Virus record (IMG/VR): IMGVR_UViG_3300012075_000001
Coordinates: 15,804 to 79,803 of that record
DNA: 64,000 nt
From: a virus
Lineage: Duplodnaviria; Heunggongvirae; Uroviricota; Caudoviricetes
Strand: one strand, 5' to 3'
Both the position numbers and the translations under genes were made by a program. Below are positions 1,637 through 63,865 of the stretch, piece after piece (the stretch's first letter is position 1; each line of letters opens with the position of its first letter). The notes under the pieces are model-generated. The model made no database searches. It saw nothing but the letters and a program-made list of their open reading frames with translations, and was not told the origin of the DNA.

Positions 1637-4600
1637 ATGAACATTAATCATGCCCTTTCCGTACAATCTGACTTCTCGATTGGTCAATCTATGCTTCAGG
1701 TTGACCATATTATTGAGAAAGCAAAGGAGCTGGGTTATCAATCGGTCGCTGTGGTTGATGACATGAGCGTTCATGCGCTTATTCAATTCACATACAAGGC
1801 TGAGAAAGAAGGTATCAAACCTATAACTGGCGTTCGTGTGCGAGTTTATGACGACCCTACCTATCGTCGACCTTCAAGAACATCACAAGAGATTCCTAAA
1901 GAAAACCCGTGGTTCATTTGTAAGGTTTTCGCGAAAACCGAGGTGGGATTCAAAGGGTTGCTTAGGCTATTAACCGAAGCGAATACTCCAGAGCGATTCT
2001 ATTACAATCCTCGTTCATGCCTTAAAGACCTTCTCGAGCTAGAGGATGTGATTGTTACGACGGGCGATATGTTCGGTATGTTTAGTCATCCGAACTACGA
2101 AAAGATTGCACGTCAATTAAAGTCTACCTTTGGCGATGATTTCTACGCAGAGCTGTGCCCTATAAACACACCATTGTTTGACAAGATGAATAAGCGTGCA
2201 ATTGAGCTTGTCAGCACAATGGGTTACAAACCTCTTGTCACCTACCCTTTTCGCTATTCAGATAACGCAGACGCGAATACGATGGATGTAATGAGTGCGA
2301 TTGCTACAAACACGCAATTAGATGCCTCTTTCCGTAGTCGTCAGTATGTTAAAGAATTTGCATTCGTTGGCCCAAATGTAATTATCGACCGCACAAAGGC
2401 AGCAATCGCACGCGGTGTTAAGTTCAATCGAACCATGTTAGATCCAAAAGCCGTAACAGCAATTTGGTCTACAGGTATCAAAAATTGCGATGAGATTGTT
2501 CAAAAGTGCCAGTACAAGTTTGAAAAACAATCAATTTCTCTTCCAAAATTAGCAGACGATGAGTTCAAGAAGTTATGCGATTTGTGTGTAGCGGGCTGGA
2601 AAAAACGATTTAGCAAACCCGTCTTAGGCTATTTGCCCACTAAACAGCAACTCGATACTGATTATAAAGATCGCTTAGGCTATGAGTTAAGAACGCTCAA
2701 AAATATGGGTTTTGAGTCCTACTTCTTAATGGTTGAGGATCTTGTAACGTGGGCCAAGAACAACGGTGTAATTGTAGGACCCGGTCGTGGTTCGGTTGGT
2801 GGTTCATTGGTTGCTTACCTTATTGGCATCACGGACGTAGACCCTATTCGCTTTGGTTTGATCTTCGAGCGTTTTATTAACCCTGAGCGACTAGATTTGC
2901 CCGATGCTGACCTTGACTTTGCCTCTTCGCGTCGTCACAAAGTTGTTGAATACCTCATTGATAAATACGGGAAAGAATACGTTGCGGGTATTTCCAACTA
3001 CTCAACATTAGCTTCGGCTTCAGCATTACGTGATGTCGGTCGTTTAAGCGGTTTAACACCTCTTGAATTAACGGCGTCTAAATTCGTGCTTAAAGATCAC
3101 GGTCAAACAATGTCGCTTGAAGAGTCAGCTAAAGCGGTTCCTGAATTAGACAAATTTAAAAAAGCGCATCCTGAAATTTGGAAGCATGCTGTTAAATTGG
3201 CGGGAACAATGAAGTCGTTCGGTCAACACGCTGCCGGTATTGTTGTAGCGGGTGAACCAATTGTGAACCGTGCTGTTTTGGAGCGTCGATCTGAAGGCAC
3301 GGTCGTAAACTGGGATAAGCGAGTGGTTGAAGACTGTGGCTTAGTAAAAATGGACTTACTGGGTTTGTCCACCTTAGACACGCTTAATATTGCCCGTGAC
3401 TACATCAAAGAACGTCATGGCATCTATCTAAACTACTTAGAAATTCCTTTAGATGATGCTAAGACCTTGCAAGCGTTTGCAAACGGTAATACTACAGGCG
3501 TTTTCCAGTTCGAATCAGGTGGTATGAAACAGCTGCTAAAAGATATCGCAAAGGGTGGCTCAATGACCTTTGATGATATTTCAGCTGCAACCGCTTTGTA
3601 TCGTCCGGGGCCTATGGATTCAGGACTTTTAGACGATTACGTTGCAACCCGTCAAGGTATGCGTTCAGTCAGCTACGATCATCCAAATATGATTGACGCA
3701 CTCAAAGACACTTTAGGCGTCATTATCTATCAAGAACAGGTAATGAAAGTCTCTGTGGACTTTGCAGGTTTTACAAACGCTGAAGCGGACAAACTCCGTA
3801 AAGCGATGGGTAAAAAGAACGTCGACGAAATGAACAAGATGCGTCAAAAGTTCATTGACGGCGCAGTTGCAAAATCAGGAGTAGAACCAGGAGAGGCTGG
3901 ACGAATTTTTGATAAGATCGAAGCCTTTGCTGGCTATGGTTTCAACAAATCTCACTCAGTTGAGTATTCAATCATTTCTGTATGGTGTGCTTATGTTCGC
4001 GTCCACTATCCAGCTGAATATTTTGCTGCATCTTTATCAATCGTAGATGAGGATAAATTGAAAGGTTTGGTGAAGGATGCTCGCGAATGCGGTATCGAAG
4101 TTTTACCGCCAGACATTAACCTTTCTTCTGACCGTTACACCATCTTAGACAATCACAATATTCTTGCACCGTTTAACGCTGTTAAGGGCGTATCAGAGAC
4201 GACGGCACGCGCTATCGTGAAGCTACGCGAAAAGAACCGCGATATGAAGATTGTTAAGTACAAACGCAATGAAGAGAAAACGCCTGTTTATGGTTATGAC
4301 GACGATGCGCCAATTAAAGGTCGCTTTGATAGCTTGTTCGAGTTCCAAGAAGCAGCAGCACAGCCTAAAACTAAGGTAAACTCAAAAGTCGTTGAGTCTC
4401 TTAATGCGATTGGCGCTTTAGCGAGCGTAGAGCCATCACAATTACCCGCTCGACACATCGACCGACGCAAAGCTCAAATGGACTTATTGCCCGGAATTGT
4501 CATCGATACGGTGAAGGCTGACCGAGTTGCTGATCTAAGCGAAAATCACTTAAAGAGTCGCATCATCATGGTGGCTCAGGAATACAAACAGTGTGATGGC

Positions 4601-5098
4601 TGCGATTTGAAAGGTAAAAAGCATCCAGTCATGCGTTGTGGTAACAAAGTTAAGTTTATGGTCGTCACAGATTGTCCAAATGTTGATGAGGACAAGCAAG
4701 ATAAGCTTATGGTAGGTGATGTCTCAACGTATTTGAAGCAAGCAATCAGAGACGCTGGACTAAATCCAAACGACGGTTACTACACTACGATGGTGAAGGC
4801 GCGTAAGTCAGATAAATTCCTTTCTAACTCACAAATTAATAATTGTAGTAAGTACTTGGAAGAAGAGATTAATCTTGTTAAGCCAAGCATTATTGTTGCG
4901 CTAGGCTCTAGTGTGGCCAAGAAGTTTTTGCCTAGTGTTAAGGGCGGCATTTCAGAGTTAAATGCGACCGCTGTTTATGACACTAACCTTGACGCAACTA
5001 TTGTCTGTGGCATTAGTCCTGCACAACTACCCTTTGACCCTTCAAAACTACCAGACCTTACTTTAGCCTTCGAAAAAGTAGCAGAAGTATTAAGTTGA
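1637..5098 (+). CDS. dnaE: DNA polymerase III alpha subunit (DnaE-like) with C-terminal degenerate family-4 UDG-like domain
   Basis: N-terminal PHP-like region and polymerase core (GPGRGS..G.LVAYL, MDLLGL, YRPGPMD, GYGFNKSH). The C-terminal ~170 aa align to family-4 UDG (KFMVVTDCPNVDEDKQ...VGD vs LMIVGEAPGEEEDKQ...VGRAG; LVKPSIIVALGS vs LVRPRVIVALGA). Confidence 0.85.
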   Translation: MNINHALSVQSDFSIGQSMLQVDHIIEKAKELGYQSVAVVDDMSVHALIQFTYKAEKEGIKPITGVRVRVYDDPTYRRPSRTSQEIPKENPWFICKVFAKTEVGFKGLLRLLTEANTPERFYYNPRSCLKDLLELEDVIVTTGDMFGMFSHPNYEKIARQLKSTFGDDFYAELCPINTPLFDKMNKRAIELVSTMGYKPLVTYPFRYSDNADANTMDVMSAIATNTQLDASFRSRQYVKEFAFVGPNVIIDRTKAAIARGVKFNRTMLDPKAVTAIWSTGIKNCDEIVQKCQYKFEKQSISLPKLADDEFKKLCDLCVAGWKKRFSKPVLGYLPTKQQLDTDYKDRLGYELRTLKNMGFESYFLMVEDLVTWAKNNGVIVGPGRGSVGGSLVAYLIGITDVDPIRFGLIFERFINPERLDLPDADLDFASSRRHKVVEYLIDKYGKEYVAGISNYSTLASASALRDVGRLSGLTPLELTASKFVLKDHGQTMSLEESAKAVPELDKFKKAHPEIWKHAVKLAGTMKSFGQHAAGIVVAGEPIVNRAVLERRSEGTVVNWDKRVVEDCGLVKMDLLGLSTLDTLNIARDYIKERHGIYLNYLEIPLDDAKTLQAFANGNTTGVFQFESGGMKQLLKDIAKGGSMTFDDISAATALYRPGPMDSGLLDDYVATRQGMRSVSYDHPNMIDALKDTLGVIIYQEQVMKVSVDFAGFTNAEADKLRKAMGKKNVDEMNKMRQKFIDGAVAKSGVEPGEAGRIFDKIEAFAGYGFNKSHSVEYSIISVWCAYVRVHYPAEYFAASLSIVDEDKLKGLVKDARECGIEVLPPDINLSSDRYTILDNHNILAPFNAVKGVSETTARAIVKLREKNRDMKIVKYKRNEEKTPVYGYDDDAPIKGRFDSLFEFQEAAAQPKTKVNSKVVESLNAIGALASVEPSQLPARHIDRRKAQMDLLPGIVIDTVKADRVADLSENHLKSRIIMVAQEYKQCDGCDLKGKKHPVMRCGNKVKFMVVTDCPNVDEDKQDKLMVGDVSTYLKQAIRDAGLNPNDGYYTTMVKARKSDKFLSNSQINNCSKYLEEEINLVKPSIIVALGSSVAKKFLPSVKGGISELNATAVYDTNLDATIVCGISPAQLPFDPSKLPDLTLAFEKVAEVLS

Positions 5099-5110
5099 TT
5101 TATTGGAGAA

Positions 5111-13906: not shown

Positions 13907-15858
13907 TGGAATTTTTAACACTCAAAATTAATAACTTCTTAACGATTGGCGAAGCTCGTCTTGATTTGGCTAATCGTGGTTTATTGTTGGTGCAAGGTGA
14001 AAACAAAGATAATACGTCCGCAGACTCTAACGGTTCCGGTAAGTCATCCATTGTTGACGCTTTATGCTGGTGTCTCTACGGAACTACAGCACGAGACGTT
14101 ACAGGCGATATGGTCATTAATAAGACGGCCAAAAAGGATTGTTCGGTCGAACTCACGATTCATGACAATGGACAGTGTTACAAAATCGCTCGTCACCGCA
14201 AACATGCGACACACAAAAACGCATTAATCGTTTTAAAGACAGATATTCACGGCAACGAGTTACCTAACGGCAATATCACAAAAGGCACCGACAAAGAGTC
14301 ACAAGAGTTGGTGATTGATATCGTCGGCTCTACTCTCGATGTATTTATGTCATCCGTATACGCTGGTCAGGAAATGATGCCTAACCTCCCTGCCCTTACG
14401 GATAAAAACTTAAAGGTGCTTATCGAAGAAGCTGCCGGTATTCAAGTTTTAGAACAAGCGCACACGGTCGCAAAACGTAAGTTGGCTGAAGTTAAAGGTA
14501 AGCTCTCTAATAAGCTCGCTATTCGCGATAACTTTGCGACGGTACTTGCGACCATGCAAGGGCAATTGGCAGACACTCAAGCGAAACTAGCGCAATTTGA
14601 CGCAACAAAAGAGTCACGCGCTAAAGTTGTTCTAGCTGAAGTGTTACCGCTGAGACAGGCGGTCGAAAATATCAAAGCGAATATTGGCAAGACCGACATT
14701 AATTCTCTTAATGCCGAGAAACAATCAATTGTAGCCGCGATTAATAAAATTGAAGCTATCTCGAATCAAGCTCAACAACTTGGGAAGATCCGCGATGACT
14801 TGGGTATGAAGTACCGCATCACTAATAATACTTATATCTCTTTAAATACTAATTTAAATAACTTAGTGACCAAAATTAAAGGCATCGACGGTTTAGTAGG
14901 TACGCCTTGTACACAGTGCGGTAAAGAGTATTGCAAGGATGATTTACAGCAAGCGCGAACGGCCCAAATCACACACGCTCAAACGGTCAAGCAAGACACG
15001 CTAAATGCCAAAAACGAAATGGAGCAAGCCAAAGAAGCGTTTGAACTGGCTGAAAAGAACCTTGCTGAGTTTGTTCGGAACAACCCACACGATGCCCGTA
15101 AGTTATATGCAGATTTAGCAGCTGTTGAAGGCGCAATTACCGCATTCAATTCCTCAAGCGAAGACATCAACCGCAAGATGACGGAAATCGAGCAAATCAA
15201 GATGCGTGCAAAAGGGGTTATGACAGAACAAAACCCTTTCAAGGTAATGGAAGCAGATCAACAAGCGAAGATTGCGGATTACGTTAATAAGAACTCTGCA
15301 ATCGACCAAGAAATTGCGGAGCTTCAAAAAACCGTCGAGCTACACGAACATGCGGTTCAGATCTATGGCCCTTCAGGAGTTCGGGCACACATTCTCGATA
15401 CTGTTACGCCGTTTTTGAATGAACGTACTGAAGACTATCTCGGCGCACTCACTGACGGCAACACTCATGCTGTTTGGTCAACCTTAACGCTAAACAGCAA
15501 AAAAGAACTCAAGGAAAAATTCACCATCGACGTTCGAGACAATACGGGCGGTGAATCATTCAAAGGTTTAAGCGGCGGTGAAAAACGCAAGGTTCGTTTA
15601 GCTACCGCTTTGGCCCTTCAAGATCTGGTTGCAAGTCGTGCCTCTAAGCCAATTAGCTTATTTATTGGTGATGAGATCGATGACGCCTTAGATAAATCAG
15701 GACTTGAGCGTCTTATGGGTGTGCTTGAGCGCAAAGCTCGAGAGCGAGGAACAGTCATCGTCGTTTCGCATTCTGAATTGCGAGATTGGATTGACGATGT
15801 TGTGGTGGTCACTAAAGAAAACGGTTATTCGACCGTAAGCGGTGCAAACCTCGTTTAA
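13906..15858 (+). CDS. Rad50/SbcC-family ATPase (T4 gp46-like)
   Basis: Walker A NGSGKSS, long coiled-coil middle, signature LSGGEKRKV, Walker B LFIGDEID. TAATG-coupled to the Mre11 gene. Confidence 0.8.
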   Translation: MEFLTLKINNFLTIGEARLDLANRGLLLVQGENKDNTSADSNGSGKSSIVDALCWCLYGTTARDVTGDMVINKTAKKDCSVELTIHDNGQCYKIARHRKHATHKNALIVLKTDIHGNELPNGNITKGTDKESQELVIDIVGSTLDVFMSSVYAGQEMMPNLPALTDKNLKVLIEEAAGIQVLEQAHTVAKRKLAEVKGKLSNKLAIRDNFATVLATMQGQLADTQAKLAQFDATKESRAKVVLAEVLPLRQAVENIKANIGKTDINSLNAEKQSIVAAINKIEAISNQAQQLGKIRDDLGMKYRITNNTYISLNTNLNNLVTKIKGIDGLVGTPCTQCGKEYCKDDLQQARTAQITHAQTVKQDTLNAKNEMEQAKEAFELAEKNLAEFVRNNPHDARKLYADLAAVEGAITAFNSSSEDINRKMTEIEQIKMRAKGVMTEQNPFKVMEADQQAKIADYVNKNSAIDQEIAELQKTVELHEHAVQIYGPSGVRAHILDTVTPFLNERTEDYLGALTDGNTHAVWSTLTLNSKKELKEKFTIDVRDNTGGESFKGLSGGEKRKVRLATALALQDLVASRASKPISLFIGDEIDDALDKSGLERLMGVLERKARERGTVIVVSHSELRDWIDDVVVVTKENGYSTVSGANLV

Positions 15859-20720: not shown

Positions 20721-20760
20721 ACAGGGGTGTTTTAACACCCCTCTTTCATGGAATAAAGAA

Positions 20761-21753
20761 ATGACATACGCAAACCGAATTAATGATCGACGTTTAATTT
20801 TGGGTCCAAAGGATGACCTAATGGCGATCAGCCCGATGAAACACACGTGGGCCAGAGACATTCATCAACGCATGAAGGACAACAACTGGTTTCCTGAAGT
20901 GGTCGACTTGAGCAATGAAGGCATTTGCTATCGAGACAAGCTTACCGAAGCGGAACGTCGATTGTATGACAAGAGCCTTGCGTTTTTATCGAACCTTGAC
21001 GGTATCCAATTTCACAATATCAACCAAAATATTGCCAAGCATGTAACCTCTCCTGAAGTTGCTATTTGTTTATCCCGTCAAGCATGGGAAGAAGCAAACC
21101 ATGTGGAATCTTACGCTAAGCTCGTTGAAACCGTCTCTACAGATCCAATGAGTGTCTATATGACATTTGAGCGTGATGGTATTTTGGCGAAGAAAAACGA
21201 GTTTATTTTGCGTCAATCACGTATCTTGGGCGACCAATTTACAGCACGCGGTTTTGGGCTTTCATGTATTTCAAACGTCATGCTTGAGGGTGTTTACTTT
21301 TTCTCTGGGTTCTTAGGCTTCTACTTGCTTGCAGATAAAGGCAAAATGCTCGGTTCGGCAGATATGATTCGTTATATCCAGCGTGATGAAGAAGGTACAC
21401 ACCTTGATCTGTTCACCCACATGCTTGATACATTGCGCATCGAAAACTCAGAAATTTTCACAAATTCATTTTGGGACGATACGGCTGAATTAATCGACTC
21501 TTCAACCAAAATGGAGATTAGCTGGGGTCAATACGTTCATCAAGGCGTTACCAATCCCGAAGCAATCGAGTTGTATATCAAATCGTTAGCGAATAAGCGT
21601 GCCATTCAAATTAATGCACCGTTTGTGCCTTATCCTGGTGTGGTTAATCCGTTTCAGTGGGTAGAAGAATTTTCAAAGCCAAATACCGCCGAGAAGAACT
21701 TCTTTGAATCGCGGGTAACTGATTATAAGTCTGGTGGTGCATTAGCATGGTAA
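20761..21753 (+). CDS. nrdB: ribonucleotide reductase small subunit
   Basis: Di-iron ligand motifs (EEANHVESY, EGTH) and size. Confidence 0.85.
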   Translation: MTYANRINDRRLILGPKDDLMAISPMKHTWARDIHQRMKDNNWFPEVVDLSNEGICYRDKLTEAERRLYDKSLAFLSNLDGIQFHNINQNIAKHVTSPEVAICLSRQAWEEANHVESYAKLVETVSTDPMSVYMTFERDGILAKKNEFILRQSRILGDQFTARGFGLSCISNVMLEGVYFFSGFLGFYLLADKGKMLGSADMIRYIQRDEEGTHLDLFTHMLDTLRIENSEIFTNSFWDDTAELIDSSTKMEISWGQYVHQGVTNPEAIELYIKSLANKRAIQINAPFVPYPGVVNPFQWVEEFSKPNTAEKNFFESRVTDYKSGGALAW

Positions 21754-21783
21754 AAGAAAAGGCGCATTAAGCGCCTTTTTTAT
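21753..21783. terminator. bidirectional rho-independent terminator (nrdB / doc convergence)
   Basis: AAAAGGCGC-ATTAA-GCGCCTTTTTT. Confidence 0.75.
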
Positions 21784-22205
21784 AACTGATGAACATATTG
21801 ATAGAGGTAGTCGCCTAATGCCTCAGCAATTTCCTTGTGGCCACCGTCTTCGCATGATTGTGCGCTTTCAACAATGTCAACCATCATGTCATCCAGATCT
21901 TGATTAGGTTCAATGTAAACGCCTTGCATACGAAGGTAAGTCAACATTACGGTCAATCCTGTTCTTTTATTGCCATCTTTAAATGCGTGTTGCGTGGCAA
22001 TTGAAATACCATACCATGCCGCAATCACATAAATGTCATTCAAGCCTTCGTAGTAAACGTATTGTTGAACTCTTGCCAAAGCGCTTTCAAGTAGACCGTC
22101 ATTGGTTGGGCCTCTCAAGCCACCCTGTACGCTATCTAGAATTTCGTTATGAATCGCCTTTACAAGCGCTGCGTTAATTGTAGGTGCCGGATCAAAATCA
22201 TCCAT
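21780..22205 (-). CDS. doc: Doc (death-on-curing) / Fic-family toxin
   Basis: HAFKDGNKRTG matches the Doc/Fic motif H.F.(D/N)GNKR. Confidence 0.7.
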   Translation of the reverse strand: MDDFDPAPTINAALVKAIHNEILDSVQGGLRGPTNDGLLESALARVQQYVYYEGLNDIYVIAAWYGISIATQHAFKDGNKRTGLTVMLTYLRMQGVYIEPNQDLDDMMVDIVESAQSCEDGGHKEIAEALGDYLYQYVHQL

Positions 22206-22564
22206 TATTTATAAGCCAGACGTTCAAGTTCCTCGTGATGATCACGAATAACACTGCGGGCAACGCCACGAACCAAACGCTCAGAAGCAGGCGACTCAGT
22301 TAGCCCGATCATGACAGCCGCACGTTCTGAAGCAAGTTTGCGGGCACTCTCAAGAACTTTAGCGCTTTGAGAAGAATCAAGATACTTCATCATTTGCACA
22401 GCAGCACCAGTGCTTGCTTTGTCCAATAACAAATCTTCTAGCTGACGATTTTTCTCTTCTTCACTAAGTTGAGAAACTGATTCAAATGCTTTACGCATTT
22501 GCTCCATTCTGTCTTCGTACAGCTTGCTTTTACGCTCAGTTAAAAACTCGCTAAATCTTTTCAT
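22205..22564 (-). CDS. putative cognate antitoxin / partner of Doc (not Phd-like)
   Basis: Immediately upstream of doc on the same strand with a TAATG overlap. Helical and charged. -35 TTGACA upstream. Confidence 0.45.
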   Translation of the reverse strand: MKRFSEFLTERKSKLYEDRMEQMRKAFESVSQLSEEEKNRQLEDLLLDKASTGAAVQMMKYLDSSQSAKVLESARKLASERAAVMIGLTESPASERLVRGVARSVIRDHHEELERLAYK

Positions 22565-22708
22565 GTAATTAACCTCATTAACAAACGTCGATCATGTGTC
22601 AATTCACTACGGGTCGACCGTATGTCATGGTTCATTTTAACCGTTTATTCGCAAACATAAAACAACTGGCTAAAAATAAGCCTATTTATAGAAAATAATC
22701 TCCAAAAG

Positions 22709-22730
22709 ATCAGTCAGTACTGACTATACT
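22709..22730 (+). promoter_or_regulatory. palindromic motif + TATACT
   Basis: Followed by hairpin GGAGGTGAC-GCCAA-GTCACCTC then TTTTT (22750-22776). Confidence 0.5.
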
Positions 22731-22797
22731 TTAACGCTCAGAGAACGAGGGAGGTGACGCCAAGTCACCTCTTTTTAATAGTGAGTGTCAACCAACA

Positions 22798-23658
22798 ATG
22801 CAAGTCAAAATTATTGCGGATTCTTGTAGTCATGAAGGGAAACGTATTACGACCTTTCAACTGCGTTACCCGCGTTTTATTCACAGTGAAGTGATGACCC
22901 ACCGCGTATTTAGTCGCAATGCATCAAGCTCGCGTGCCATCCCTGTAATCAAAATGATCAATCAGGTTGAAGCAAATCCGGCGATGCCTGTTCATTGGGG
23001 CAAAAACCAAGCTGGTATGCAGGCTTGGGAAGAAGTGGATGAAGAAACAAAGGAACTTGCTCGTGAAGCTTGGCTAATCGCAGCTAAAAATGCGGTTGAA
23101 ACAGCGCGATTCATGGCTGTTGATCTCAATCTGCACAAACAAGTTGTTAATCGCATCTTAGAGCCATTCCAATTCATTGAAGTGGTTTTGACGGCGACCA
23201 GTTATGACAACTTCTTTGAGCTTCGCCATCACGAAGATGCCGACCCAACTATTTTTGCCTTAACTGCATTGATGAAGGCAGAAATTCAAAAATCAACACC
23301 AGTTCTTTTAGGGCCTAACGAATGGCACCTTCCATACATCACAGATAAAGAACGTGAACTTTATCCGATCGAAATTCTGTTGCAAGTATCGGCGGCTCGT
23401 TGTTGTCGCGTCTCCTACTTACTACATGACGGCCAAACGCCAAACATCGATAAAGATATTCGCCTTTGTGAAAAGTTAGTTGGTTCTGAACCACTTCACG
23501 CCTCTCCTTTTGAACATCAAGCAACACCGGATATTCGAAATCCGTGGTTAGTCAAATTGTTCTGCGGCGAATGGCAAAACAAACATCTGCATGGGAATTT
23601 CGATGGCTTTATACAGCATCGGAAATTAATCGAACTTCAATTTAAGGAAGCAGCATGA
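22798..23658 (+). CDS. thyX: flavin-dependent thymidylate synthase
   Basis: THRVFSRNASSSRAIP matches the ThyX RHR(X7)S motif. Confidence 0.8.
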   Translation: MQVKIIADSCSHEGKRITTFQLRYPRFIHSEVMTHRVFSRNASSSRAIPVIKMINQVEANPAMPVHWGKNQAGMQAWEEVDEETKELAREAWLIAAKNAVETARFMAVDLNLHKQVVNRILEPFQFIEVVLTATSYDNFFELRHHEDADPTIFALTALMKAEIQKSTPVLLGPNEWHLPYITDKERELYPIEILLQVSAARCCRVSYLLHDGQTPNIDKDIRLCEKLVGSEPLHASPFEHQATPDIRNPWLVKLFCGEWQNKHLHGNFDGFIQHRKLIELQFKEAA

Positions 23659-58898: not shown

Positions 58899-60143
58899 AT
58901 GGGAATCAAAGAAAAACTCAGCCTACATCCTAAACAGATGGAGGTTTACCAGTCTAAAGCGCGTTTCCGCGTGGTTGTTGCTGGGCGCCGTTGGGGTAAG
59001 AGTCAACTTTCTAAGATTTTGATGATTTCCAAAGCGCGCGTTCCAAAGCAAAAGGTATGGTACGTTGCACCAACGTACAAAATGGCTAAGCAGATCATGT
59101 GGAATGATTTGCTTGACGCTATACCTAAATCATGGATCGCCAAAGTCAACGAGTCAAACCTTTCAATTCGATTGGTAAATAAATCACGAATTGAACTGAA
59201 AGGTGCGGACAAGGCCGATTCCCTTCGTGGTGTCGGTATCAACTTTCTCGTTCTCGATGAGTTTCAGGACATGGACGAAGACACTTGGACTAAAGTGTTG
59301 CGTCCTACGCTGGCAGATACAGGTGGTCACGCCATCTTCATCGGTACGCCTAAAGCCTACAACTGTCTTTACACCGTTTATAAATTAGGGCAAGACCCTA
59401 AGAAAATTAAAACGGGCCAATGGCAGTCGTGGCAGTTTCCAACGATTACATCCCCATTCATCCCATTATCTGAATTAGCTGCCGCTAAAGCAGATATGGA
59501 TGAAAAATCCTTCAAACAGGAGTTTTTAGCGTCATTCGAAACCATGAGTGGTCGTGTCTACTATCCATTTGACCGAAATCTGCATGTGGGGAATTACGAA
59601 ATCAATCCTCACTTGCCAATTTGGGTAGGTATGGACTTCAACATTGACCCAATGAGCGCCGTTTTGTTTCAACCTCAAGAGAACGGCGAACTTTGGGCAG
59701 TTGATGAAGTTGTTCTGTTTGGCTCTAACACCGAAGAAATGTGTCAGGCGCTGGATGAAAAACTATGGAGACACAGATCGCAAATCGTTGTTTACCCCGA
59801 CCCAGCAGGCGGACAAAGGCAGCATGCGCGAGGCGAGACAGACTTGGACATCCTAAGAGAAATGGGTTTCAAGCACATCAAGTACCGCAAAAAGCATCCA
59901 ATGATTGCAGATAGGGTCAACTCGGTGAATCGATTACTAATGGCGGCAGATGGCTCAATTCGATTGAAAATCGATGAGAAGTGCAAACATCTTATCAACT
60001 CCTTCGAACAGACCATTTACAAGCCGGGTTCGCGCGATGTCGACAAGGCAGCTGGCGTTGAACATAGTGCCGATGCAGCAGGGTACGCAATCGAACTTGA
60101 GTTTCCATTACGCAAAATTGAGTTTGGCGGTATTTCAATTTAA
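58899..60143 (+). CDS. terminase large subunit candidate
   Basis: Walker A AGRRWGKS, Walker B LVLDEFQD, C-terminal acidic nuclease-like region. Confidence 0.5.
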   Translation: MGIKEKLSLHPKQMEVYQSKARFRVVVAGRRWGKSQLSKILMISKARVPKQKVWYVAPTYKMAKQIMWNDLLDAIPKSWIAKVNESNLSIRLVNKSRIELKGADKADSLRGVGINFLVLDEFQDMDEDTWTKVLRPTLADTGGHAIFIGTPKAYNCLYTVYKLGQDPKKIKTGQWQSWQFPTITSPFIPLSELAAAKADMDEKSFKQEFLASFETMSGRVYYPFDRNLHVGNYEINPHLPIWVGMDFNIDPMSAVLFQPQENGELWAVDEVVLFGSNTEEMCQALDEKLWRHRSQIVVYPDPAGGQRQHARGETDLDILREMGFKHIKYRKKHPMIADRVNSVNRLLMAADGSIRLKIDEKCKHLINSFEQTIYKPGSRDVDKAAGVEHSADAAGYAIELEFPLRKIEFGGISI

Positions 60144-62962: not shown

Positions 62963-63865
62963 ATGCCACTATTACGCGAAGAAGCTGCGAAGCTTAGTAA
63001 TAACGAACTCGTCTCAGGCGTGGTCGAAGAAATCATCGACAAGGATGAAATGTTTGCGTTTCTTCCATTTATCGGCGTAAAAGGGAAAGCTTACGTCTAT
63101 AACCGTGAAAAAACGTTAGCTGACGCTGATTTCTTGGATCCAAACGAAGAAATCAAAGAATCTGCATCAACGTTCGACGAAGTTACTGCCAAGTTACGTA
63201 TTTTGGCTGGTGACGTCGACATCGACAAATTCCTTGATTCAACAATGGATGACACTAATAACCAAATGGCGATCCAAGTGACGCAAAAGGCGAAAGGTGT
63301 TGGCCGTAAATTCCACAAAACTTTAGCAACTGGTGATGCCTCTGTTAACCCGAAAGAGTTTGACGGTATCGCAAAACTTGTAACTGAAGAGCAAACTATT
63401 GTCGCTGGTGACAATGGTAGTGGTATCACTTTAGCGTTGTTAGACGAATTACTTGATAAGGTTCCTCATGGTGCCGACTGTTTAGTGATGCGTCGTGGTA
63501 CGATTCGTGCGTACCGTAACTTGCTCCGTGTGACATCGGGCACTGACGCTGTAATGCAGATGATCGAAAACTTTGGTCGTCCAATGTTGACGCACAACGG
63601 TGTGCCAATTGTGATGAACGAATTTTTGCCAGCTGACGAAGTGGTGGGCACGAACCAAAAAACGTGTTCTATTTACGCAATCCGTGCAAACGAAGTAGAT
63701 GGCTTACATGGTATCTACGGCGGTGGCCCTGCTGGTATCGTTGTTGAAAACATCGGTACGGTACAAAATAAAGACGCAACACGCATCCGCTTAAAGTGGT
63801 ATGTTGGTTTAGTCTTGAAATCAACTAAGTCTTTGGCGCGTTTAAAAGGTATTACTAATACCTAA
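62963..63865 (+). CDS. major capsid protein candidate
   Basis: Gene order. Strong terminator follows. Confidence 0.35.
   Translation: MPLLREEAAKLSNNELVSGVVEEIIDKDEMFAFLPFIGVKGKAYVYNREKTLADADFLDPNEEIKESASTFDEVTAKLRILAGDVDIDKFLDSTMDDTNNQMAIQVTQKAKGVGRKFHKTLATGDASVNPKEFDGIAKLVTEEQTIVAGDNGSGITLALLDELLDKVPHGADCLVMRRGTIRAYRNLLRVTSGTDAVMQMIENFGRPMLTHNGVPIVMNEFLPADEVVGTNQKTCSIYAIRANEVDGLHGIYGGGPAGIVVENIGTVQNKDATRIRLKWYVGLVLKSTKSLARLKGITNT

Follow-up and report, generated by a model that had tools for sequence, protein, structure and literature searches.

Between nrdB (20761-21753) and thyX (22798-23658) on the plus strand of a 64,000-nucleotide stretch of Caudoviricetes DNA (IMG/VR record IMGVR_UViG_3300012075_000001, positions 15,804 to 79,803; the whole stretch is here termed the window) lies a cassette of two small minus-strand genes. 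We consider it likely that this cassette is a type II Doc toxin-antitoxin operon, and that it acts as an addiction module for a plasmid-prophage of the Acinetobacter AB group much as phd-doc does for P1. The arrangement agrees with a preliminary description of the sequence, which had recognised two minus-strand open reading frames (ORFs) between nrdB and thyX, facing a plus-strand block: they are the sole credible minus-strand genes within some 50 kb of plus-strand genes, and they overlap by one base (TAATG) exactly where that description placed the overlap, leaving the upstream partner translationally coupled. Two small, co-oriented, overlapping genes with the putative antitoxin first is the organisation of a type II operon. 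In related plasmids the PGAP annotation labels the toxin a 'type II toxin-antitoxin system death-on-curing family toxin' and the partner a 'hypothetical protein'; in GC content the cassette is indistinguishable from its flanks.

The downstream gene (21780-22205, minus strand) encodes 141 amino acids and carries the motif HAFKDGNKRTG, on which its earlier assignment to the Doc family was based. Profile searches bear the assignment out: the ORF matches Pfam Fic (PF02661; E 3.6e-14, 53.8 bits against a cut-off of 24), TIGR01550 DOC_P1 (64.2 bits against a cut-off of 38.65) and phrog_577, 'Doc-like toxin' (9e-37). The structure of P1 Doc (3k33) aligns to it at E 8e-14, with HAFKDGNKRTGL opposite HIFNDANKRTAL, such that H73-A-F-K-D-G-N-K80-R81 pairs with H66-I-F-N-D-A-N-K73-R74 of P1 Doc. 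The motif residues (H73, F75, D77, G78, N79, K80 and R81) fit the pattern HxFx(D/N)(A/G)NKR, and Lys80 occupies the position of Doc K73, which is Gly in AMPylating Fic proteins. K73 is the residue that turns the Fic fold into a kinase, and separates Doc kinases from AMPylating Fic proteins (PMC7180214). An AlphaFold2 (AF2) model (pLDDT 81, pTM 0.80) returned chains of P1 Doc as its top five Foldseek matches in the PDB (TM 0.84-0.88, root-mean-square deviation 2.0-2.7 A). By signature, predicted fold and kinase-type motif, the 141-residue ORF is a Doc-family toxin.

The partner gene (22205-22564, minus strand) encodes 119 amino acids that match, over their full length, phrog_8906 (1.2e-33), an unclassified family of unknown function. 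Searches of Pfam and NCBIfam gave no significant match, Phd/YefM (PF02604) did not appear at E values up to 1, neither TIGR02609 doc_partner nor the AbrB-type PF04014 matched, and the best E in a sequence-profile search of the PDB was 0.17. The suggestion that the partner is helical and does not belong to Phd/YefM holds: PF02604 is without a match, the predicted structure is all-helical and lacks beta-sheet, and nothing comparable was found in the PDB. The family is tiny – eight clusters in a collection of 5.8 billion proteins, those with names all from Acinetobacter, and only four clusters among 1.84 billion representatives – and a profile scan of species-representative genomes found no relative. 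In the loci examined the partner gene is always directly upstream of a Doc gene.

An informative feature of the partner is the uneven manner in which it has evolved. Its last 30 residues are invariant across eight homologues, and its first 12 are conserved. The tail (codons 91-119; 22208-22294, minus strand; SPASERLVRGVARSVIRDHHEELERLAYK), predicted to fold as a helix-kink-helix, has the highest pLDDT of the partner model (72-80) and is the putative Doc-binding and neutralising segment. Between these ends lies a hypervariable, replaceable middle (codons 13-87; 22304-22528, minus strand), for which the ratio of nonsynonymous to synonymous substitution (dN/dS) is 0.25-0.45. Copies of the cassette found in Acinetobacter chromosomes (see below) allow the contrast to be drawn within a single comparison: the middle has a dN/dS of 0.25, codons 88-119 show no nonsynonymous and nine synonymous changes, and the toxin, whose dN/dS is 0.04-0.07 overall, stands at 0.04. 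These ratios and counts indicate that both genes encode selected proteins, and that constraint is strongest on the tail.

Two phage-plasmid contigs show how far the middle can change. In one (L007, 6001-6309) codons ~8-88 of the partner have been swapped for non-homologous sequence; in the other (L008, 6001-6285) the middle is divergent and a deletion has shortened it. Homology persists in both through the upstream region, the first 7-17 codons, the tail and doc. Two motif-level readings of the partner were considered and set aside. The string SPASER resembles the inhibitory motif of class I Fic systems, (S/T)xxxE(G/N), but its Glu is not conserved in the two more distant tail-bearing proteins described next; and the N-terminus, MKRFSEFL, does not suit a ribbon-helix-helix, given a non-alternating hydrophobic pattern and a model that is helical from residue 4.

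The tail also occurs on other bodies. A profile search with the partner yielded a single distant match, P0015 (129 residues, from a metagenome), which shares just the tail (59% identity over 37 residues); its N-terminal part of about 90 residues is unrelated to the partner of the window, and the next gene is a Doc of the same clade. At this locus (L015 and L016; SRR23684495/SRR23684493) the cassette and nrdB are divergently oriented, with the cassette on the upstream side of the gene and not, as in the window, on its downstream side; a distant relative thus has it at another position of the same nucleotide-metabolism block. In Burkholderia phage phiBtTUL1a a Doc 45% identical to that of the window is preceded by an overlapping 60-residue ORF ending in SPAGRKAILNAARTVYEQHRSVIQALAKR, in register with the tail of the window (BLASTP E 2e-5; hhalign E 0.0022 over 30 columns); these are probably the same Doc-binding tail, to judge from the alignments. 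By analogy with the C-terminal helix of Phd, we infer that the tail is the element that binds and neutralises Doc. A search with a profile of the tail gave mostly the doc_partner family, because one doc_partner sequence was in the query; homology to the ...FRALAK tail of these AbrB-type partners was rejected, hhalign against 23 members returning a probability of 0.1%.

The tail thus stands on three bodies: the 119-residue Acinetobacter type, P0015 and the 60-residue Burkholderia phage type. A bolder reading, which we put forward tentatively and regard as rather less than an even bet, is that the 119-residue protein belongs to a new modular class of Doc antitoxin, in which a 'Doc-lock' tail is shuffled across bodies, the operon is controlled through repeats in its upstream region and the cassette is possibly wired to a family of palindromes dispersed over the replicon (both described below). 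The bodies in such a class may be unrelated, fast-evolving and devoid of a classical DNA-binding domain, and operon control would fall to repeats of the form TGACA-N4-RTCGACG.

The nature of the replicon bears directly on what the cassette might do. The first 25 kb of the window are collinear with circular Acinetobacter baumannii plasmids of 105-114 kb (95% covered, 83% identity), and the source contig is 109,760 bp. The window also encodes structural and packaging proteins – the terminase large subunit (58899-60143) and the major capsid protein (62963-63865) – along with a gp32-like single-stranded DNA-binding protein, DnaE and RecA. Collinearity with plasmids combined with phage structural genes leads us to conclude that the element is a plasmid-prophage, and its gene order and content identify it as an AB-group Acinetobacter phage-plasmid; the virulent phage assumed in the preliminary description must be set aside. 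The AB group, as defined by Pfeifer et al. (2021), comprises elements of approximately 110 kb confined to Acinetobacter and lacking a known phage (PMC7969092). The best phage match of the nrdA gene of the window is Pseudomonas phage nickie, one of a pair of phages that have been named as distant relatives of the group (PMC7969092; PMC12977533). Neither a megablast search for close DNA matches to the window nor a tblastn search for the partner protein found anything in 50,697 phage records; the relatives are filed as plasmids and not as phages.

This phage-plasmid context places addiction ahead of the other two roles that had been listed for Doc. The pair phd-doc is persistent among P1-like phage-plasmids (PMC7969092), and stabilises P1 by post-segregational killing (PMC7180214; PMC7969092). 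By analogy, the Doc of the window would phosphorylate EF-Tu at Thr382 and arrest translation, while the helix-kink-helix formed by the invariant 30-residue C-terminus of the partner would bind Doc and occlude the active site, in the way that Phd uses its own C-terminal helix. The fast-changing body may make the partner the labile component. The operon would be transcribed alone in the lysogenic (plasmid) state, against the lytic operons, ending at a hairpin shared with nrdB, and might be autoregulated through its two TGACA-N4-RTCGACG repeats; cells that lose the 110-kb element would then lose the antitoxin first and suffer arrest or death.

One of the other listed roles was shutoff of host translation during lytic growth: Doc would be released in the lytic cycle and stop host translation, while the partner would set the timing or give immunity. 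The position of the cassette inside a nucleotide-metabolism block, and its renewed adjacency to nrdB in a distant relative, would sit well with such a function, and in PHROGs the category given to Doc-like toxins is 'moron, auxiliary metabolic gene and host takeover'. Yet inactivated EF-Tu would halt the synthesis of phage proteins too; the cassette opposes the lytic operons and lacks, on its own strand, the palindrome-plus-TATACT promoter described below; the pair is under strong purifying selection in chromosomes that hold no phage genes; and the replicon is not virulent but a plasmid-prophage. We found no support for the proposal and regard it as very improbable.

The distribution of the cassette was examined among plasmids and chromosomes. 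In PLSDB the nrdB and thyX flanks are matched by 175 records, from Acinetobacter and others, only 27 of which contain the whole stretch. Records encoding the partner likewise number 27, all of them A. baumannii plasmids of 104-114 kb typed as non-mobilizable, and 27 is again the number of records that match the window at 80-90% identity (the agreement between the sets is one of number). The larger sister lineage (for example p1DB053) lacks the cassette. There nrdB runs straight into the next plus-strand gene, on which basis the cassette is an insertion that appears to have become fixed in one sub-lineage. The description of the cassette as an acquired moron is therefore correct insofar as it is an insertion relative to the sister lineage; it does not extend to sporadic occurrence, since all 27 PLSDB carriers are of one type. 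A related plasmid (L002, 1-5389; NZ_CP026705.1, 18771-24159) carries an IS26-bounded msr(E)-mph(E) macrolide-resistance island immediately upstream of nrdB, in the place that nrdA holds in the window, which marks the nucleotide-metabolism block near the cassette as an insertion hot spot in clinical isolates.

Chromosomes have captured the same unit. In A. oleivorans, A. lactucae and A. pittii a copy of approximately 1.26 kb has an Mpo1-like gene on one side and thiE on the other, and corresponds to 21451-22727 of the window: regulatory region, partner, doc and hairpin, all read from the minus strand, together with the final 300 nt or so of nrdB (by blastn, L004 and L006 match it at 86.8% identity over 1281 columns). 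DNA upstream of the partner makes up 160 nt of the fragment, and no other phage genes are found nearby. In these copies the nrdB remnant is broken by stop codons and both cassette genes are intact, from which it follows that transfer was from phage-plasmid to chromosome, and that the pair has been kept by selection on its own. On either side of the A. oleivorans copy stands an imperfect direct repeat of 20 bp, GTTCATGAYGGTATAYRTCA (L004, 9808-9827 and 11105-11124); copies at the same Mpo1-like/thiE site are present also in L005, L006, L024 and L025, in three species overall. A scan for the flanking 20-bp repeat did not find an empty site in Acinetobacter. Across these contexts – phage-plasmids, one chromosomal site in three species, and another position in a distant element – the two genes are kept together.

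The chromosomal copies bear on two further explanations. The first is that the pair serves in abortive infection or superinfection defence: an incoming phage that stops host expression would allow the labile antitoxin to decay and Doc to be freed, a function compatible with addiction. Intact and selected chromosomal copies need a benefit beyond plasmid retention, which such a role would supply; accessory genes of prophages that lie in reverse orientation, as these do, are often defence genes; and Doc gives weak matches to models of candidate systems in PADLOC (PDC-M59B at 7.7e-08, PDC-S23 and SoFic at ~1e-05). These matches are nonetheless of the generic Fic-domain kind, to candidate systems that are themselves untested. 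The window has no defence island around the pair and neither do the chromosomes, in which housekeeping genes flank it, and a phage-sensing component is not present. We therefore rate defence as unlikely, though well ahead of host takeover.

The second explanation is that the cassette is a selfish or decaying passenger or, in a variant of the idea, that the upstream ORF is an unrelated regulator and Doc is harmless through low expression. A partner with no known domain, whose fast-evolving middle is replaced or deleted in variants, is what might be expected of a passenger, as is an Asn-to-Asp change in the motif of one Doc variant. To this must be opposed the low dN/dS of Doc, a tail free of nonsynonymous change, the decay of the chromosomal nrdB remnant next to a pair that has not decayed, and the association of the tail with this clade of Doc on three different bodies. 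We give the passenger explanation very little credence.

A GC-rich hairpin common to the convergent 3′ ends of nrdB and doc (21755-21781) has U runs on both sides and is likely to be a bidirectional intrinsic terminator. It is significant on both strands (-13.9 kcal/mol, z -3.8 on the minus strand; -17.6 kcal/mol, z -4.5 on the plus strand), none of 200 shuffled sequences folds as well, and it is retained in the chromosomal copy. The proposal of a terminator that closes the unit in both directions, and insulates the cassette from nrdB, is thus plausible even though a strict scan for terminator patterns does not list the hairpin.

The 163 nt upstream of the partner ATG (22565-22727, minus strand) must hold the promoter and operator of the cassette. 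They are 89-94% identical between loci whose synonymous coding sites differ by 37-69%, an identity so far above that of synonymous sites as to imply constraint. The cassette had been credited with a sigma70-like promoter and a Shine-Dalgarno sequence of its own. Both elements are present: TTGACA (22597-22602) is exact, conserved and 33 nt from the ATG, and GAGG (22573-22576, minus strand), a possible Shine-Dalgarno sequence, lies 8 nt before the ATG, where a purine-rich GAGG or GGGG has been kept in all loci. They are mutually exclusive, however, since transcription from this promoter would start at ~22567-22570, downstream of GAGG. The best -10 candidate, at 16-nt spacing from TTGACA, is TGtTAATGA, in which TAATGA has two of six matches (just the TA) and is preceded by TG. 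The claim thus survives as regards the two motifs; as a working combination it fails, the two being incompatible and no promoter being called. Nothing significant was found by Rfam in 21400-23100, and the leader of the cassette shows no significant RNA structure (z -1.27).

The upstream region contains a pair of direct repeats with the consensus TGACA-N4-RTCGACG: TGACATACGGTCGACC at 22612-22627 and TGACACATGATCGACG at 22586-22601, both on the minus strand. The second copy begins with the TTGACA, and the first is a candidate operator half. The copies are 24-26 nt apart; between loci they differ at the central N positions, with no change in the flanks. All 11 other cassette loci with a partner N-terminus of the window type have the pair in the same position, whereas the P0015 locus and the cassette-free lineage lack it (L003, L015, L016). 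On this pattern the repeats are a candidate operator overlapping the promoter.

While addiction remains our favoured explanation, several observations weigh against it. The sigma-70 scan came back empty at TTGACA, and expression in lysogeny is an assumption on our part. The model of the partner is all-helical but of low confidence (pLDDT 64, pTM 0.24) and has no structural match in a fold search of the PDB (E above 6); searches of Pfam and NCBIfam, and of the PDB by sequence and by fold, recognise no DNA-binding domain in it. One A. baumannii Doc cluster, represented by P0012 and comprising 19 member sequences, reads HAFSDGDKR, with Asp replacing the conserved Asn; Doc copies of this type may be attenuated in some isolates, judging from the motif. 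The plasmid copy L002 from PLSDB retains the Asn. No member of the AB group has been shown to form virions (PMC7969092). Toxicity, neutralisation, lability of the antitoxin, phosphorylation of EF-Tu and stabilisation of the plasmid are all properties that we infer. Finally, copies persist in chromosomes where there is no plasmid to stabilise, and for that reason addiction cannot be the sole selective basis of the pair.

A finding that may prove more interesting than the cassette itself is a family of palindromes and leader hairpins dispersed over the window. The member next to the cassette (22712-22725, plus strand) is a 14-bp palindrome, AGTCAGTACTGACT, followed by TATACT; it faces thyX and marks where the chromosomal fragment ends on its upstream side. 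The palindrome, AGTCA(G/C)TACTGACT, has 24 matches at up to three mismatches against 1.95 expected. There are 17 good copies, all intergenic, starting at 5110, 6298, 12777, 17260, 20701, 22712, 29417, 30326, 32464, 36575, 47195, 50647, 53507, 58198, 60154, 62845 and 63872. Several, including those before nrdB and thyX, are followed by TATACT or TATAAT on the plus strand. The family is probably a genome-wide set of promoters and operators of the phage-plasmid, as suggested by placement and sequence, with a dispersal comparable to that of the C1 operators of P1. A full-text literature search found no paper on the palindrome. A related sequence, AGTCACCGCTGACT, lies upstream of the cassette in the metagenome contig L016; the cassette has been seen twice back-to-back with the palindrome promoter of a nucleotide-metabolism gene, and may be wired into the palindrome regulon in a manner that links maintenance of the prophage to the lysis-lysogeny state.

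In several cases the palindrome promoter is followed, in the leader, by a strong hairpin and a U run. That of thyX (22747-22775) is a GC hairpin with a 12-bp stem (-27.6 kcal/mol, z -5.7), and that of nrdB (20723-20741) has a z of -2.0; each, with a U run behind it, stands after the palindrome promoter and ahead of the start codon. The order – promoter, terminator-like hairpin, gene – suggests control by antitermination or a stabiliser of the 5′ end. Elsewhere in the window, DnaE (1637-5098, plus strand) is a protein of 1153 residues with PHP, pol III alpha, finger and HHH domains, to which is joined, at the C-terminal end (residues 1004-1136), a domain of the uracil-DNA glycosylase superfamily (E 3.2e-11): an unusual fusion of polymerase and glycosylase.

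Phage-plasmids of the AB type are common in clinical A. baumannii and carry resistance genes. An addiction module, if that is what the cassette is, would help explain the persistence of 110-kb elements in the absence of selection, and would be a target for curing strategies. The tail is a compact candidate for a Doc-neutralising segment, and a potential transferable peptide inhibitor of this clade of Doc. It also offers a natural example of antitoxin bodies being swapped around a fixed toxin-binding tail. What is known of Doc itself is unchanged, the gain for the toxin-antitoxin field is modest, and a specialist would not be surprised.

Comparison with known systems begins with phd-doc of P1. 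The two Doc proteins share fold and motif (37.6% identity over 66% of the length, by tblastn), and in both systems the antitoxin gene comes first, is translationally coupled to the toxin and resides on a temperate phage kept as a plasmid. A shared mechanism would be expected: phosphorylation of EF-Tu at Thr382, a C-terminal antitoxin helix and post-segregational killing. The antitoxins are nonetheless different. Phd has 73 residues, whereas the partner in the window has 119, is not of the Phd/YefM type, is all-helical by prediction and lacks any recognised DNA-binding domain; the two tails, compared by eye only, show no sequence similarity. The operator sites of P1 are palindromic, and the candidate operator of the window is a pair of direct repeats. 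The host of the window element is Acinetobacter, and its phage-plasmid group is unrelated to P1.

Other Doc and Fic proteins have partners that are not Phd. In the class I Fic pairs VbhA-VbhT and YhfG-FicT a small helical antitoxin lacking a classical DNA-binding domain places a helix at the active site. These toxins, however, are AMP-transferases with a GNGR motif, where the Doc of the window has GNKR, and their inhibitory helix carries (S/T)xxxE(G/N), which SPASER resembles in the window family only. Pairs of AbrB/MazE proteins with Doc have long been known, among them TasA-TasB of Bacillus thuringiensis plasmid pGI1 (PMC1626090), and 48 AbrB/MazE-Fic/Doc pairs, as well as YhfG, have been described (PMC2701414). 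The TIGR02609 doc_partner (TasA-TasB) family resembles the present case in having a non-Phd antitoxin just upstream of Doc, and a tail that ends in ...ALAK or ...LAYK; its AbrB/SpoVT domain is not in the partner of the window, and the similar tail ending is unsupported as homology.

A further parallel is provided by Burkholderia phages (phiBtTUL1a and relatives) and chromosomes of the B. cepacia complex (P0016), in which the partner also overlaps doc and its ending, SPAGRKAILNAA(R/K)xVYEQH(R/H)SVIQALA, is in register with SPASERLVRGVARSVIRDHHEELERLA of the window. That partner, at 60 residues, extends barely beyond the tail, and has neither the 90-residue helical body nor the conserved MKRFSEF N-terminus; it belongs to an integrating temperate phage and is annotated as a hypothetical protein only. 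A Doc with a non-Phd partner is therefore already known, and the interest of the present pair is to that extent modest. What is new is a family of antitoxins with an invariant tail, a swappable body and no recognisable DNA-binding domain, and the presence of this family in a clinically common lineage of Acinetobacter phage-plasmids.

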